Counted from the stretch's first letter, positions 37,627-50,614 are shown. The stretch: 64,000 nucleotides of DNA from Alphaproteobacteria bacterium (GCA_040263875.1 JBDQJI010000005.1:6496-70495), one strand, 5' to 3'. Numbers and translations: made by a program. The notes: generated by a model from the sequence alone, not told the origin.

Positions 37627-40506
37627 ATGAACGCACCGCTTGAGCCTATCGACTACAACCGCCCGACCGGGGACGAAATCAAAACCACCACCTGTTACAT
37701 GTGCGCCTGTCGCTGTGGGATTCGCGTGCATCTGAAAGATGGCCGGGTCCGATATATTGACGGCAATCCTGATCACCCAGTGAATGGCGGCGTGCTTTGC
37801 GGCAAGGGTGCGGCTGGGATCATGCAGCACTATTCCCCAGCCCGATTGACCAAACCGCTCCGCCGCAAGGGTGCCCGTGGCGCTGGCGAGTTTGAAGAGA
37901 TTGAGTGGAATGAAGCGCTGACAATGGCGACCTCCTGGCTCTCTGAAGTCCGCAACACAGACCCGCGCCGCTTGGCGTTCTTCACCGGACGCGACCAATC
38001 ACAATCCTTAACTGGCTTTTGGGCGACGCAATTCGGCACGCCCAACCATGCCGCACATGGTGGCTTCTGTTCGGTCAATATGGCCGCCGGGGGTATATAT
38101 TCCATCGGCGGATCGTTCTGGGAATTTGGCGAGCCTGACTGGGAGCATGCACGCATGCTGCTGATGTTCGGCGTTGCGGAAGATCACGATTCCAACCCGA
38201 TCAAAATTGGCCTTGGCAAGCTGAAATCTCGTGGTGCCAAAGTTGTTTCTGTGAACCCGGTTCGCACGGGCTATTCGGCCATTGCAGACGAATGGGTCGG
38301 GATTCGCCCCGGCACGGACGGCGCATTTGTATCAGCGCTTATCCATGAGCTTCTCCGCCAAGACCGAATTGATCTGGAATTCCTGGCGCGCACAACGGAC
38401 GCTTCCTGGCTGATTAACCAGAACCCGGGCGCTGCCGATCATGGGCTCGTTATTAAAGATGCTGATGGCGCGCCACTTGGCTGGGACGGGACTGCTGATG
38501 CGCCGACACCTGCGCGCACACCCGGTGCCAACCTTTCCCTCATCGGTGAGCGCACACTGCCCGATGGTCGAAAAGCCAAGACCGTATTCCAGCTTCTGGC
38601 GGAGCGCTTTCTTGACGGCGCGAACAACCCGGATGCGGTGGCTGCTATTACTGATGTGCCTGCGGAAACCATCCGCAATCTTGCCAATGATCTAGCAGCG
38701 GCTGCCCTTGATGACCCGATGGAAATCCAGCAACCCTGGACCGACTGGACCGGCAAGCGCCATGAAACCATGGTCGCCCGCCCAGTCGCCATCCATGCCA
38801 TGCGCGGAATCTCAGCACACTCCAACGGCTTCGACACATGCCGCTTGATCCATGTGCTGCAGATGCTGCTGGGCGCAATCGATGCGCCCGGTTCTTTCCG
38901 CTACAAACCACCATTCCCGAAACCTGTGCCACCTGGTCCAAAGCCTGCCGGCAAAGCTGACCAGATAGGTCCCGGCCGCCCCATGGCTGGCCCACCGCTA
39001 GGATTTGTCGCTGGCCCAGAGGACCTGCTGGTAGACCCGGACGGAACGCCCCGGCGCATCGACCACGCCTATAGCTGGGAAGCGCCTGTCGCCGCCCACG
39101 GGTTGATGCATATGGTGATCGAAAACGCCGCAAAGCAGGACCCGAACCCAATCGACGTGCTGTTCATGTATATGGCCAATATGGGCTGGAATTCGTCCAT
39201 GAGCGTTGAGAACGCGCTTAAAGGCTTGACGGCGAAGGACGAAGAAACCGGCGAATATAAGATCAAGCACGTTATTTATTCGGACGCGTTCTGGTCTGAA
39301 ACTGTGGCCTATGCAGACCTAATTTTCCCAGACACCACCTATCTAGAACGGTGGGACGCGATCTCATTGCTCGACCGACCAATTTCGGACGCAGATGGCC
39401 CAGCGGACGCTATCCGCCAGCCGATCTTTGAACCGGACCGTGACGTTCGCCCGTTCCAAGAAGTCGTTATTGACCTTGGCCATCGCTTGGGCCTGCCCGC
39501 ATTCACCAATGAAGACGGCACCGCCAAATTCCCTGGTGGCTACAAAGACTACCTCGTCAACCACGAGCGCACGCCCGGCGTGGGCCCGCTTGCAGGCTGG
39601 CGCGGTGAGGACGGTGACAAGGGCGGTATTGGCGCAAAGAACCCCGATCAGCTCGACAAATATATTGAAAATGGCTGCTTCTGGAAGCACGAACTTGAGC
39701 CGGAACAGCGCTATTTCAAACATTCCAATAAGTCTTATCTGGAATGGTCGGCGAGCATGGGCTTCATCCCGAACGCTGACCCCATCGTGATGCATTTGTA
39801 CTCGGAACCGTTGCAGAAGTTCCGCCTCGCAGCTGAAGGCCACGGTGACGTTCAACCGCCGACAGATGCTGCCCGGCAGCGCGTGCTGAAGAACTTTGAT
39901 CCCATCGCCAGCTGGCGTCCGCCGCTAAACGGCTTGGAGGATGCGGATAACGCATATCCCCTGCATGCGATCACGCAGCGCCCGATGGCGATGTATCATT
40001 CCTGGGGTTCTCAGAACGCTTGGCTCCGCCAAATCCATACGGCCAACCGCCTGTTCATGGCGCGGGAGCTGGTGGAGGAAATGGGGCTGAAGGACGATTC
40101 CTGGGTTTATGTCACCAGCCCGAACGGCAAGATCAAAGCTCAGATCAAGGCAATGGAAGGTGTGAACCCTCGCACCGTCTGGACCTGGAACGCCATTGGC
40201 AAGCGCAAAGGTGCCTGGGGCTTGGACAAAGACGCGCCGGAAGCAACCAAAGGCTTCCTGCTGAATCACCTGATTTCCGAACTGCTGCCCGACGGCCAAG
40301 GCGGCCATTGGCCAAACGCTGATCCAGTGACTGGCCAAGCGGCATGGTACGACCTCCGCGTCAAAATTGAGCCCGCCCCCGCGGATACCGCACAAGTGAG
40401 CGAGCCCGTGATACCTGCGCTGCCCAATAACCCTGGCGGCAAGCCTAACCCAAGCCGCCTAGGCTTCGGCGCGGCCTTCCGTGGCCGCAAGGAGGCCCGC
40501 TCATGA
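37627..40506 (+). CDS. Molybdopterin (bis-MGD) oxidoreductase catalytic subunit, DmsA-like, without a twin-arginine signal
   Basis: 959 aa. N-terminal FS0-cluster Cys motif TTCYMCACRCG ... LCGKG. No RRxFLK motif in the first 40 aa. A GAGGA Shine-Dalgarno 6 nt upstream fixes the start. Confidence 0.88.
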   Translation: MNAPLEPIDYNRPTGDEIKTTTCYMCACRCGIRVHLKDGRVRYIDGNPDHPVNGGVLCGKGAAGIMQHYSPARLTKPLRRKGARGAGEFEEIEWNEALTMATSWLSEVRNTDPRRLAFFTGRDQSQSLTGFWATQFGTPNHAAHGGFCSVNMAAGGIYSIGGSFWEFGEPDWEHARMLLMFGVAEDHDSNPIKIGLGKLKSRGAKVVSVNPVRTGYSAIADEWVGIRPGTDGAFVSALIHELLRQDRIDLEFLARTTDASWLINQNPGAADHGLVIKDADGAPLGWDGTADAPTPARTPGANLSLIGERTLPDGRKAKTVFQLLAERFLDGANNPDAVAAITDVPAETIRNLANDLAAAALDDPMEIQQPWTDWTGKRHETMVARPVAIHAMRGISAHSNGFDTCRLIHVLQMLLGAIDAPGSFRYKPPFPKPVPPGPKPAGKADQIGPGRPMAGPPLGFVAGPEDLLVDPDGTPRRIDHAYSWEAPVAAHGLMHMVIENAAKQDPNPIDVLFMYMANMGWNSSMSVENALKGLTAKDEETGEYKIKHVIYSDAFWSETVAYADLIFPDTTYLERWDAISLLDRPISDADGPADAIRQPIFEPDRDVRPFQEVVIDLGHRLGLPAFTNEDGTAKFPGGYKDYLVNHERTPGVGPLAGWRGEDGDKGGIGAKNPDQLDKYIENGCFWKHELEPEQRYFKHSNKSYLEWSASMGFIPNADPIVMHLYSEPLQKFRLAAEGHGDVQPPTDAARQRVLKNFDPIASWRPPLNGLEDADNAYPLHAITQRPMAMYHSWGSQNAWLRQIHTANRLFMARELVEEMGLKDDSWVYVTSPNGKIKAQIKAMEGVNPRTVWTWNAIGKRKGAWGLDKDAPEATKGFLLNHLISELLPDGQGGHWPNADPVTGQAAWYDLRVKIEPAPADTAQVSEPVIPALPNNPGGKPNPSRLGFGAAFRGRKEARS

Positions 40507-41228
40507 CCAGTTTACCAGCGACCGCGCCCGTAAAAAAATTGGGACTGGTCATCGACCTGGACACCTGCGTCGGTTGCCATGCCTGCGCCGTTAATTGCAA
40601 GGAATGGAACACGGGCGGCGAAATGGCCCCATTGACGGATATGGACCCTTATGGCGCAGAGCCAGAGGGCGTGTGGTTCAACCGCGTACACGGCTATGAG
40701 GCTGGCGATGGTGCCAATGGGCGCACCGTCCATTTCCCGCGCTCCTGCCTTCATTGCGAGACGCCTGCATGCGTCACGGTTTGTCCAACGGGGGCTTCCT
40801 ATAAGCGCGAAGAAGACGGCATTGTGCTGGTAGACGAAGACAAGTGCATTGGCTGCAAGCTCTGCTCCTGGGCCTGCCCTTACGGTGCGCGTGAGTTTGA
40901 TGAAACCGTCGGCGTCATGAAAAAGTGCACGCTTTGCGTGGACCGCATCTACAACGAAACCATTCCGGAAGCAGAACGTGTTCCGGCATGTGTTTCAACG
41001 TGCCCGGCCTCTGCCAGGCATTTCGGAGATTTGGGCGACCCGAATTCAGATGTGTCCAAGCTGGTTGCTGAACGCGGCGGATATGATCTGGCCCCGGAGT
41101 TTGACTACAAGCCGACCAACAAATACCTGCCGCCCCGCGAACGGATGCCCAGTGCGCCAGCTGCAGCCGAAGCAGCAGGCGAGCCGCAGGGCCTGCTGAA
41201 GTGGGTCGACCGGATGCTGTCAATCTGA
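40503..41228 (+). CDS. 4Fe-4S ferredoxin-type electron-transfer subunit (DmsB-like)
   Basis: Four Cys clusters: CVGCHACAVNC, CLHCETPACVTVCP, CIGCKLCSWACP and CTLC ... CVSTCP. Confidence 0.88.
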   Translation: MTSLPATAPVKKLGLVIDLDTCVGCHACAVNCKEWNTGGEMAPLTDMDPYGAEPEGVWFNRVHGYEAGDGANGRTVHFPRSCLHCETPACVTVCPTGASYKREEDGIVLVDEDKCIGCKLCSWACPYGAREFDETVGVMKKCTLCVDRIYNETIPEAERVPACVSTCPASARHFGDLGDPNSDVSKLVAERGGYDLAPEFDYKPTNKYLPPRERMPSAPAAAEAAGEPQGLLKWVDRMLSI

Positions 41229-41283
41229 TCATGACGATGCTTGTTCTGATCTCTAATCTCTCTGGCCGCTGGAGCCGCCGACC

Positions 41284-42219
41284 GTGAACCCTGCACCTTC
41301 AGTTATCTTTTTCACGACCCTGTCGGGGCTCGGCTACGGGCTGGCATTCTGGCTTGCCATTGCGCGGGCGTTTGGCGCTGTTCCAGCGGATACGCCCTGG
41401 TTTGGCGCGATCAGCCTTGGTGCCGCATTGGCACTGTTATCAGCCGGCCTGTTGTCGTCAACCGCCCACCTTGGCCATCCAGAACGGGCATGGCGCGCAT
41501 TCAGCCAATGGCGGACCTCCTGGCTATCTCGCGAAGGCGTGGCCGCTGTTGTGACATTCGTTCCGCTTGGGCTGCTGTGGCTTGCATGGATGCTTGGTGC
41601 GACTGGTGGCATTTGGGCTCTTGTTGCGCTTGTCGGTGCAGCCCTGGCGCTCATCACCGTGTACTGCACCGGTATGATCTATCAGTCCTTAAAGCCGATC
41701 CAGGCTTGGGCGACAGGATGGACGACGCCGATCTATCTTCTATTTGCCTTAATGACAGGTGCCCATGCTGTGGCGGCACTGGCTGCATGGTTCGGCTATG
41801 GTGCCTCCTGGCAAGCAGGTGCGGCGCTGATCCTGACCGTCGTTCTAGCGATCTCCAAGTTCATGTATTGGCGGTCCGTCGATACCGCGACGCCCTTCTC
41901 GACGCCGGAAAGTGCGACGGGCCTTGGTCGCTTTGGCAGGGTCCGCCAACTCGAAGCACCCCACGTGACAGAGAATTACATCACGCGGGAAATGGGCTTC
42001 AAAGTTGCCCGTAAGCATGCGGCAAAACTGCGGATGATTGTCTATGCCATTGGCTTTGGCATCCCCGCTCTCGTTGCAATGCTGATGCTGATCTCCGGGC
42101 CTTCTGCGTTGTTGGCGACGATTGGTATCCTCGCGGCTATGGTCGGTGCCATCGCAGAACGCTGGCTCTTCTTCGCTGAAGCCAAGCATGCTGTCATGAA
42201 TTTCTACGGTGAGCGTTGA
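41284..42219 (+). CDS. DmsC-family membrane anchor subunit
   Basis: 8-TM protein containing the DmsC-like segment HLGHPERAWRAFSQWRTSWLSRE. Confidence 0.78.
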   Translation: MNPAPSVIFFTTLSGLGYGLAFWLAIARAFGAVPADTPWFGAISLGAALALLSAGLLSSTAHLGHPERAWRAFSQWRTSWLSREGVAAVVTFVPLGLLWLAWMLGATGGIWALVALVGAALALITVYCTGMIYQSLKPIQAWATGWTTPIYLLFALMTGAHAVAALAAWFGYGASWQAGAALILTVVLAISKFMYWRSVDTATPFSTPESATGLGRFGRVRQLEAPHVTENYITREMGFKVARKHAAKLRMIVYAIGFGIPALVAMLMLISGPSALLATIGILAAMVGAIAERWLFFAEAKHAVMNFYGER

Positions 42220-48338: not shown

Positions 48339-49124
48339 ATGCCTCGCTTCGCCGCCAATCTTTCGATGATGTTCCAGGAGCATGAATTCCTGGACCGGTT
48401 TGCTGCAGCATCCGCCGCTGGGTTCAAAGGCGTTGAGTTCCTGTTTCCCTATGATTTCTCTATTGCGGATGTCCAAGACGCAGCGAAAAGCGCCGGTGTA
48501 GAGATCGCGCTCTTCAACCTACCACCAGGAGATTGGGAAAAGGCGGAACGTGGCTTGGCAGCAATGCCTGGACGTGAGGCCGATTTTGCCGACGCCTTGG
48601 ACAAAGCCATCAGTTACGCCGTTCCCCTTGGCTGTAAGCGTCTTCATATGATGGCTGGCATTCCAGGCGCCGATGCAGATCCGGCTCAATGCCGCGCGAC
48701 ATATGTCAGCAATTTGAAATACGCGGCACCGAAGCTTGCAGACGCTGGCCTGATGGGCCTGATTGAGCCAATCAACACCCGCGACATCCCCGGCTACTTC
48801 ATCAATTACCAGCAAGATGGCCATGATGTGCTGGCGAATGTGGGTGCCGACAACTTAATGGTCCAGATGGACTTTTATCACGTCCAGATTATGGAAGGCG
48901 ATATCGCGATGCGCTTCCAGAAACATCAGGCGGGCGTCGGCCATATTCAGATCGCCGGGTCGCCGGGTCGCCATGAGCCGGATGTTGGTGAAATCAATCA
49001 TCCTTATCTTTTCAAGATGCTGGATGATCTCGGTTATGATGGCTGGATCGGTTGTGAATACCGGCCTGCAGCAGGCACACTGGAAGGGTTGGCCCGGTGG
49101 GGTAGCGATTATGGCCTCGGTTGA
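48339..49124 (+). CDS. hyi: Hydroxypyruvate isomerase family (Hyi/OtnI-like TIM-barrel)
   Basis: [33 protein letters not shown] is the canonical Hyi N-terminus. Confidence 0.88.
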
Positions 49125-49383
49125 TTTCCAGAAAGACCGGCCCGCACTTGATCGCCAGACTTGGTATTGCGTGCATATTCTGGATGAGTTGAACGGTGCC
49201 CGCTCCCGCGGATTCCCGCCCGAATCCCGCCGCATCAACGACATGCTCACTTGGTCCGATAAGCGATCAAAAGGCCGCTGGACCGCAGAGCGAGATCACG
49301 ACGACACGCCGATTTTCTGGTTCGAGGACCAAACCGACGCCATCCAATTCTCTCTGAAATGGTTCCCCTTTAAATGCTTATGA
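49111..49383 (+). CDS. Small conserved hypothetical protein, possibly an NDUFS4-like 'ETC complex I subunit conserved region' protein
   Basis: Non-repetitive 90-aa ORF whose start overlaps the hyi 3' end by 14 nt. The [14 protein letters not shown] and [10 protein letters not shown] blocks loosely resemble the PLMGWT(S/G)S motif of bacterial NDUFS4-like proteins. This is recollection only. Confidence 0.35.
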
Positions 49384-49393
49384 GGCCAAACTG

Positions 49394-50614
49394 ATGGTCA
49401 GACTTTCCGATATGACGGCGGATGATGCAGCGCATCTCCTGTCTAAGAATTGCCCCCGTTTTCCGGGTGAGCCATTCGTGGCCGGACCACCGTTGAAAAA
49501 CCGCCGCGTCGCGATCGTCACCACTGCCGGGTTACATCGAACGAGCGATACGGCGTTTGACCTGACCGATATTGGTTACCGGGTTATTCCTGGAAATGTC
49601 CAAGCGGCAGATCTGGCGATGAGCCACGCGTCAGTCAATTTCGACCGATCTGGCTTTCAGGATGACGTGAACGTGGTCTTCCCCATTGACCGGTTGCGCG
49701 AAATGAAGGCCGCGCGCGAAATTGGCTCCATGGCAGATTTCCACTACTCCGTCATGGGTGCGGGGTGGGAGCCCCATGAAATTGAGCCGACAGCACTGGC
49801 AATGGCAGCCCTCCTGCACCGGGACAATGTCGACGCCGCCCTACTCGTCCCCGTTTGACCAAACTGCACGCGCGCCGTGAGCGCGCTTGGGCATTTCCTC
49901 GAATCCGCCGGCATCGCGACAGCAGGTGTCAGCCTAGTGCGCGAAAATACGGAGCTAATGCAGCCGCCACGCGCGCTCTGGGTGCCGTTCGAGCTGGGCC
50001 GCCCCTTCGGCGCGCCCCATGCGCCGGACTTTCAGATGCGCGTGCTAAAGTCCGCATTGGCCCTGTTGGAGCGCACCGACGGGCCGGTCATTCTGGAGGA
50101 CTTTCCGGATGACGCACCTGACAGCGATAGTGCCGGATCACTCGTCTGCCCCGTCAATTTCCCGAAACCGCCCAATCCAAGCGAAAGCGACCTGCTGCGC
50201 GCAGTGCTAGCAGAAACGGCCAGCTTGGCACCCTGGCACGCGCTATTCATGGAAACCCATGGGCGGCGGAGCATTGCGACAGTCAGTGGCCTCGATATCG
50301 ACGCTGCTGCCCGCTATGCCGCAGCATTTTTGGAACCGGGAACAAATCCCGAGCCGCCTGACGGTAAGGACCAAGCCTCAACCCTCCGCTTTGCGATTGA
50401 GGACTTGCGCAATTGGCGGCTGGAGGCAATTACGGCGCAGCCAGGCCCCAAACCATCGTCAAAAGCCCTGGCCGATTGGTTCTGGGGGGAAACGGCGACG
50501 GGCACATTGGCGTTGGCGCTCCATCCCGTGCTGTTAGAAAGCGCCAACCCGCGCCTTCGCCAAGTCGGTGCAGGCCAGCTTGTCCCGCGGGCGCAACAAC
50601 ACAGGCTCGGCTGA
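49394..50614 (+). CDS. Candidate selenoprotein: one reading frame interrupted by a single in-frame TGA (49856..49858). Tentatively a GrdB/PrdB-like reductase B-component family member.
   Basis: The ORF track splits this into 49394..49858 and 49877..50614. Both halves are in the same frame (both starts are congruent to 2 mod 3) and are separated only by TGA plus 6 sense codons. The read-through sequence gives VPV-U-PNC (a U-x-x-C motif). A GAGG Shine-Dalgarno lies 8 nt upstream of 49394. The proposed GTG start of the second half lies inside the downstream hairpin loop and has no Shine-Dalgarno. Confidence 0.5.
49868..49888 (+). other. GC-rich hairpin (6-bp GCGCGC stem, loop CGUGA, extendable with one mismatch), a candidate bacterial SECIS-like element
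   Basis: The core stem g49870-c49875 / g49881-c49886 begins 11 nt after the A of UGA(49856..49858). The loop contains G-U. Confidence 0.4.

Follow-up and report, generated by a model that had tools for sequence, protein, structure and literature searches.

A probable selenoprotein gene of the marine 'PrdB' family, split at its UGA codon by gene callers, in an alphaproteobacterial genome

Introduction

The D-proline reductase PrdB of Clostridium sticklandii, reportedly described by Kabisch et al. in 1999, shares its name with a family of marine selenoproteins. In the Sargasso Sea selenoproteome study of 2005, a family entered as 'Proline reductase PrdB', with a UxxC motif (U, selenocysteine; x, any residue), ranks third in abundance with 42 sequences (Zhang, Fomenko & Gladyshev; PMC1088965), and the Global Ocean Sampling (GOS) study of 2008 lists the same family, under pfam07355 and again with UxxC, with 235 selenoproteins and 110 cysteine (Cys) homologues (Zhang & Gladyshev; PMC2398784). 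In D-proline reductase PrdB itself, selenocysteine (Sec) also lies in a UxxC motif, at a position equivalent to that in the protein considered here (PMC13188914). The present text concerns positions 49394 to 50614 of a 64,000-nucleotide (nt) stretch of DNA from an Alphaproteobacteria bacterium (GCA_040263875.1 JBDQJI010000005.1:6496-70495), where two adjacent open reading frames (ORFs) very probably constitute one gene for a 406-residue selenoprotein, its internal UGA having been taken for a stop. "The window" denotes the whole stretch, and positions are those of its plus strand unless another locus is named.

An initial annotation, made from the sequence alone, had proposed a candidate selenoprotein split by the ORF caller. 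That proposal is now supported by a Sec/Cys pair at the internal TGA, conservation of the TGA across many orthologous loci, a covarying hairpin immediately downstream, purifying selection on both sides of the codon, linkage to Sec genes in relatives, and membership in the published marine family.

One reading frame across an internal UGA

From 49394 to 50614 the DNA reads as a single frame of 407 codons with one internal stop, the TGA at 49856-49858; translation reveals no frameshift and no other stop before the terminator. The residues around the internal TGA run DAALLVPV, stop, PNCTRAVSALGHFLE (also written LLVPV, stop, PNCTRAVSALGHF). The ORF list gives two entries in this frame, 49394..49858 (154 amino acids (aa), from ATG) and 49877..50614 (245 aa, from GTG), separated by the TGA and six sense codons just as had been described. 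The fused product had been put at 407 aa, a figure that is correct for the codons of the frame but counts the terminator, the product itself having 406 residues. A GAGG Shine-Dalgarno sequence does precede the first ATG, at a distance of 8 nt, and the GTG at 49877-49879 has none: it lies inside the loop of the hairpin considered below and follows CACGCGCGCC, which is not purine-rich. Two ENA assemblies annotate the locus as two genes, of 154 and 245 aa, and a 245-aa product identical to the second recurs in two independent metagenome assemblies; the gene is split in this way because callers treat every UGA as a stop. The features of the locus are as follows.

49382..49385, plus strand: Shine-Dalgarno sequence GAGG, 8 nt before the ATG, read from the sequence
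49394..50614, plus strand: probable single selenoprotein gene, 406 residues and a TGA terminator at 50612-50614
49856..49858, plus strand: UGA codon 155, probably read as Sec; aligns with Cys in full-length homologues and is TGA in 85 of 85 occurrences
49856..49867, plus strand: U-P-N-C redox motif, Sec155 to Cys158, from the translation
49867..49889, with a 17-nt core at 49870-49886, plus strand: candidate bacterial Sec insertion sequence (SECIS) hairpin, from fold, conservation and covariation
49490..50077, plus strand: PrdB/GrdB-like alpha/beta domain with the Sec, residues 33-228, from TIGR04483, PF07355 and an AlphaFold2 (AF2) model
50183..50608, plus strand: C-terminal all-helical domain, residues 264-405, from AF2 helices, with no Pfam match

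A search of 5.8 billion proteins returned 2238 relatives of two classes, namely full-length proteins of 413-433 aa that carry PF07355, and many proteins of ~244 aa whose coverage is limited to the C-terminal 60% of the query and which without exception begin immediately past the TGA column. Such ~244-aa C-terminal halves, without a Pfam domain, make up most of the 120 best matches. In the alignment, all 17 full-length homologues carry Cys at the TGA column, mostly within the motif PV-C-PNCTR, with the variants PVCLLCTR (P0007) and PTCPHCTR (P0013), and every Sec form has U-P-x-C-[TS]; the redox-type U-x-x-C motif noted at the outset reads U-P-N-C in the window. Homologues therefore do not end at this position, as they might have done had the two ORFs been separate genes; they run through it with Cys.

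The profile search and the structure model agree in crossing the junction. The NCBIfam PrdB model TIGR04483 aligns with residues 33-228 in one continuous stretch (E 2e-29, 102.5 bits), and the AF2 model (predicted local distance difference test score, pLDDT, 84.4; predicted template modelling score, pTM, 0.83) shows one alpha/beta domain continuous through residue 155, in which most 10-residue blocks average a pLDDT above 85. A disordered linker at 240-262 separates this PrdB/GrdB-like domain from a C-terminal domain with helices at 264-288, 302-313, 327-347 and 356-405. This extra helical domain of ~170 aa is kept in both Sec and Cys forms, and gave no Pfam match when searched alone. The initial annotation had likened the N-terminal half to the GRDB family, and PF07355 (GRDB) indeed matches residues 71-152 with 32 bits, above its gathering score of 22, but the motif is UxxC only, without the third Cys of GrdB (UxxCxxC). 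This match (window 49604-49849) reaches profile position 345 of 347 and stops two residues short of the Sec column (residue 155); the Pfam GRDB model may itself have been built from UGA-truncated sequences, perpetuating the mis-split.

Among the Cys forms, P0007 (locus L088, 6001-7110) has TGC at the column, the motif C-L-L-C and a SECIS-like hairpin at -11 kcal/mol, consistent with a recent conversion of Sec to Cys.

Conservation of the TGA codon

A scan for orthologous DNA, limited to one genome per species, recovered 80 loci (numbered with the prefix L), each covering residues 1-406 and drawn from Alphaproteobacteria (including SAR116/Puniceispirillum and Rhodospirillaceae), Gammaproteobacteria, Myxococcota, Acidimicrobiia, Acidobacteriota, Chloroflexota, Desulfobacterota and Hydrogenedentota. 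A single in-frame stop stands at the same column in 79 of them. Counting these loci, the window and tandem paralogues, that stop is TGA in all 85 occurrences, with no instance of TAA, TAG or a Cys codon, whereas at a genuine terminator TAA, TAG and TGA would be expected to replace one another. The exception, L026 (802-2028), has CGA (Arg), one transition away from TGA, and its downstream hairpin sequence is intact; the CGA may reflect an inactivating mutation or a mistake in assembly or consensus calling.

Two copies of the family occur in L004, L008, L058, L063 and L075, each with an in-frame TGA and U-P-x-C-T, and the distance from TGA to TGA is ~1.23 kb in all of these except L058, where it is ~5.5 kb. 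A longer match in L009 (10001-11689, 565 codons), with extra in-frame stops upstream of an intact copy, suggests that a decayed, incomplete second copy of the N-terminal half precedes the gene.

A candidate SECIS hairpin downstream of the UGA

The hairpin that had been proposed, a GC stem of 6 base pairs (bp) with a 5-nt, GU-containing loop starting 11 nt after the UGA, is present both in the sequence and in the predicted fold. The 11-nt spacer CCAAACTGCAC leads into a perfect stem, GCGCGC at 49870-49875 paired with GCGCGC at 49881-49886, closed by the apical loop CGUGA at 49876-49880, which has GU at its positions 2-3 and contains the supposed GTG start; the stem can be extended to 49867/49889 by two further pairs across a 1x1 mismatch. 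Published work describes the bacterial SECIS as a stem-loop right after the UGA whose small apical loop includes a G (PMC1088965), and the element in the window, with its 6-bp stem, 5-nt loop with G and 11-nt spacer, has this form.

Taken alone, the hairpin is weak evidence. The fold of a 61-nt segment has a z-score of only -0.27 against shuffles, not significant in this GC-rich DNA, and a perfect 6-bp hairpin lies 9-14 nt 3' of 6 of the 1021 TGA triplets on the plus strand of the window; the case therefore rests on comparative evidence. When pairs were counted over 78 aligned sequences, those of the proposed hairpin were formed in 79% of cells, versus 22-50% in controls in which the 3' partner was slid by 1-3 columns. 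The pair closing the 6-bp stem (columns 18/34) occurs as GC in 33 sequences, CG in 23, AU in 3, GU in 2, UA in 1 and UG in 1, with 28 double changes, and the observed covariation score was reached by none of 500 shuffles. On the 5' side of this pair, the change from G to C falls at the synonymous third position of a Thr codon and is matched by a change at the first position of the partner codon. In the loop, G25 (from the Val codon GTN) does not vary, and at least 90% of the sequences keep T26. The hairpin is thus both conserved and covarying in orthologues, a check that the initial annotation had called for.

The Cys forms provide a further comparison. Mean local folding energy is -11.5 kcal/mol in the 80 Sec forms versus -7.2 kcal/mol in 6 Cys forms; in distant Cys forms the peptide has diverged to R-A-T-C-A or R-T-A-S-A and the hairpin is lost, while P0007, the closest Cys form (47% identity), still keeps it. 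Such a distribution would be expected if the RNA structure imposed a constraint on the peptide solely in forms that use Sec.

The best-known counterpart is the SECIS of Escherichia coli fdhF, whose minimal 17-nt form is said to have been described by Huttenhofer & Bock in 1996 and by Liu et al. in 1998. As in fdhF, the stem-loop in the window lies inside the coding sequence, has its core 11 nt after the UGA and presents an apical G-U; the 17-nt core occupies nt 15-31 counted from the U of the UGA, reportedly the same span as in fdhF, which agrees with the spacing first claimed. It differs from the fdhF element in having no bulged U, in placing GU at 22-23 instead of 23-24, and in its loop of 5 nt instead of 4. 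By analogy with fdhF, the hairpin would act in this gene as a SelB-recruiting SECIS.

Decoding of the UGA and alternative explanations

Sec recoding in E. coli follows an established SelB-dependent mechanism. If the same applies here, UGA codon 155 would be decoded as Sec and not as a stop, with the 17-nt mRNA stem-loop 11 nt 3' of the UGA recruiting SelB-GTP-Sec-tRNA(Sec) to the ribosome, and translation would end at the ordinary UGA at 50612. Such decoding is suggested by relatives in which Sec machinery (selA, selB, selD or tRNA-Sec) lies within 10 kb of the orthologue, as found in seven loci (L024, L028, L032, L042, L048, L051 and L073). In L051 (6306-11203), selA (TIGR00474, 584 bits), selB (TIGR00475, 434 bits) and tRNA-Sec precede the orthologue; in L048 (1505-3969), tRNA-Sec and selD precede it; and in L032 (10001-14958) the orthologue is followed by tRNA-Sec, selA and selB. 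The 80 loci yielded 11 tRNA genes in all, five of them for tRNA-Sec. In the genomes with such linkage, this may be a principal selenoprotein, and the window's own genome would likewise be expected to decode Sec.

It is instructive to weigh this reading against the alternatives. The first holds that the locus is a relic, the Sec machinery having been lost in this lineage, so that translation halts at codon 155 and leaves the downstream half without use or in decay. In its favor, the 64-kb window contains no Sec machinery gene or tRNA-Sec, and the CGA of L026 shows that the position can be lost. The absence of sel genes from 64 kb nevertheless carries little weight, because Sec genes are usually unlinked to the selenoprotein genes they serve. 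In a codon alignment with L001, a 93%-identical orthologue, the ratio of nonsynonymous to synonymous substitution rates (dN/dS) is 0.07 upstream of the TGA and 0.088 downstream (0.078 in the C-terminal helical domain), at a dS of ~0.4-0.5 (~0.47 in the comparison of the two halves). Purifying selection is therefore as strong downstream as upstream, and the downstream part is therefore translated in this lineage. With no frameshifts or extra stops, a perfectly intact hairpin, and the identical 245-aa product recurring in the two independent metagenome assemblies, a relic appears quite unlikely.

A second alternative is that the locus comprises two real genes, a 154-aa GRDB-like fragment ending at the TGA and an independent 245-aa protein initiated at GTG 49877. 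Gene callers in the two ENA assemblies call exactly this arrangement, and databases hold dozens of ~244-aa 'hypothetical proteins' with the same start. Across the 80 sequences, however, the column of the supposed start is GTG in 41, GTC in 24, GTT in 11, GTA in 3 and GGG in 1, that is, no start codon in 39 of the 80, and in 33 of the 80 no in-frame start codon exists within 15 codons after the TGA; judged from these sequences, the supposed start would simply be a Val codon. The missing Shine-Dalgarno sequence and the position of the GTG in the hairpin loop speak against initiation there as well. The six intervening codons, which include the Cys partner of the UxxC motif, are conserved as protein, and the two differences between the window and L001 within them (CCA/CCG and ACG/ACC) are both synonymous. 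Adding the Cys homologues that are single polypeptides, the one hidden Markov model and the one predicted domain that span the junction, and a stop codon that fails to drift, the existence of two genes is highly improbable.

Finally, a general reassignment of UGA (e.g. code 4 or code 25) or an assembly error for TGC/TGT has no specific support beyond the generic possibility that attends any in-frame TGA, and is effectively refuted, the former because TGA is the ordinary stop of 8 of 15 well-supported nearby genes, the selenoprotein gene's own terminator included, and the latter because 79 independent assemblies show the same TGA, as do two further metagenome contigs with the identical 245-aa C-terminal product.

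The reading as a single gene for a selenoprotein thus remains very probable, although a number of observations weigh against it. As the initial annotation had stated, selA, selB and selD are not found in the window: tblastn of the 64 kb gave no matches to SelA, SelB or SelD, and the window has no tRNA genes, hence no tRNA-Sec. The GTG is present in the gene's own lineage (the window, L001 and L002); it is only for other lineages that a missing start codon counts against a second gene. The hairpin overlaps the conserved peptide T-R-A-V-[GS]-A, its conservation being in part a coding constraint, and abundant compensatory change is confined to one of its pairs. Rfam returned no match to the hairpin, neither the whole window at gathering thresholds nor 49800-49960 at E up to 10 giving a SECIS-type match, a result that says little because no Rfam family matched the element at all. 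Among solved structures, none resembles the protein beyond a generic Rossmann-like sandwich; no biochemistry on the family was found, and its probable selenol/thiol redox chemistry is deduced from the motif and the superfamily. Lastly, the 64-kb window has no TauD-family gene, and the partnership described below is not visible here.

A crude search for further TGA read-through genes across the window yielded only antisense-looking junk and no second selenoprotein that would corroborate Sec use in this genome. At 37627-42219 on the plus strand lie genes for a molybdopterin oxidoreductase (959 aa, with an N-terminal Cys cluster), a 4Fe-4S protein (241 aa) and a DmsC-like membrane subunit (311 aa), an operon of the Psr/Phs/Ttr type; as it has no in-frame TGA, it does not encode a Sec-containing formate dehydrogenase.

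Gene neighborhood and possible function

Within the window, the selenoprotein gene is preceded by a xylose-isomerase-like TIM-barrel gene (48339-49124) and a 90-aa ORF (49111-49383, plus strand) that belongs to no Pfam family and is conserved in L001 (97%) and L002 (88%). The 90-aa ORF begins within the TIM-barrel gene, sharing its last 14 nt, and the stop of the ORF, TGA 49381-49383, overlaps the Shine-Dalgarno sequence of the selenoprotein gene; because the gene ends overlap or abut in this way, the arrangement suggests one translationally coupled three-gene operon. On its other side, the selenoprotein gene converges on an amidase gene.

Elsewhere, the recurrent neighbor is a gene of the TauD/TfdA family, found within 1.5 kb in 26 of the 80 Sec loci, on the same strand in 25 of these and mostly across a gap of less than 150 nt. 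These TauD genes are weakly related to gamma-butyrobetaine dioxygenase and TmpA, or are taurine-dioxygenase homologues. Cys forms have them too: TauD is directly downstream of P0016 and P0019 and follows a major facilitator superfamily (MFS) gene at P0037, and P0011 and P0012 (L084/L085, 6001-8127) are 708-aa fusions of a Cys-form GRDB-like protein with a TauD/TfdA dioxygenase, a strong hint of functional partnership. The two fusion loci adjoin sulfatase and glutathione S-transferase (GST) genes, and GSTs and sulfatases are often near family members. When the neighbors were clustered, cluster 1 consisted of antisense shadow ORFs of the gene itself, a high-GC artefact that was disregarded; cluster 9, with no Pfam match, is probably another.

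A likely chemistry can be proposed for the enzyme. Sec155 would attack a substrate or partner protein and Cys158 would resolve the adduct to a selenenylsulfide, which would be re-reduced, plausibly by glutathione or a thioredoxin-type system, and in many genomes the enzyme would work alongside a TauD/TfdA-family Fe(II)/2-oxoglutarate dioxygenase. A tentative extension, for which the odds are somewhat unfavorable, is that the marine 'PrdB' is a distinct two-domain selenoenzyme that operates without the pyruvoyl protein PrdA and is functionally coupled to TauD/TfdA dioxygenases and GSTs, which are immediate neighbors in about a third of the loci and part of the same polypeptide in some Cys forms. 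If true, organosulfonates, quaternary amines or similar compounds would be broken down with the help of a selenium-dependent step that had gone unrecognized.

Several implications follow. At this locus, two 'hypothetical proteins' of 154 and 245 aa would be replaced by one 44-kDa selenoenzyme, and the same mis-split affects many database entries. The family is among the most abundant selenoproteins of surface-ocean metagenomes and goes under a borrowed name, that of proline reductase, for which every specific test applied came out negative. Its TauD/GST neighborhood offers a concrete, testable lead to the real substrate, and thereby to the reason for which marine bacteria invest selenium in the enzyme.

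Comparison with known systems

Two named relatives were considered as identities for the protein and rejected. Against genuine D-proline reductase PrdB stands a TIGR04483 score of 102.5 bits, far from the equivalog cutoff of 300. The window protein resembles PrdB of C. sticklandii and C. difficile in homology over ~195 residues (E 2e-29), but it has 406 aa and a helical domain, whereas the single-domain PrdB profile of ~238 positions has no counterpart of the latter. The gene for the pyruvoyl proprotein, prdA, is absent within 10 kb on either side in the window (by the Pfam table) and among the recurrent neighbors of the 80 loci, and no prdC lies nearby. The hosts also differ: in place of amino-acid-fermenting Clostridia, they are SAR116, Rhodospirillaceae and others, mostly known as marine or environmental metagenome-assembled genomes.

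Identity with genuine GrdB/GrdF/GrdH fails likewise, TIGR01918 scoring 38.7 bits against a cutoff of 65.45, and the motif U-P-N-C-T-R-A having no third Cys. The protein belongs to the same superfamily, its residues 71-152 corresponding to profile positions 266-345 of PF07355, just before the Sec, but the ~250-aa N-terminal part of GrdB is absent from it. No GrdE-type proprotein or GrdA is encoded at the window's own locus or among the recurrent neighbors of the 80 loci, and grdA, grdE and grdC were not found among the neighboring genes. The published name of the family, proline reductase, implies a D-proline reductase activity that these results do not support, and is probably wrong.

The correspondence with the marine 'PrdB' family is far closer. 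In the available parts of PMC1088965 and PMC2398784, no description was found of the extra domain or of the TauD/GST neighborhood. The Sargasso supplementary entry AACY01078217, 'Proline reductase PrdB', reads VDAVLLTPVuPNCTRSVGALSYYLE... and continues through the C-terminal domain, and the motif uP[NFAL]CT appears 14 times in that supplementary file, where all the passages inspected carried the heading 'Proline reductase PrdB' (PMC1088965). Aligned with the window protein, AACY01078217 is 37% identical over 258 residues (E 3e-48), including the Sec site and the C-terminal domain. With the U-P-x-C-T motif, pfam07355 and the same C-terminal domain in common, the gene in the window is, as judged by sequence, an unannotated new member of the marine 'PrdB' selenoprotein family catalogued since 2005.

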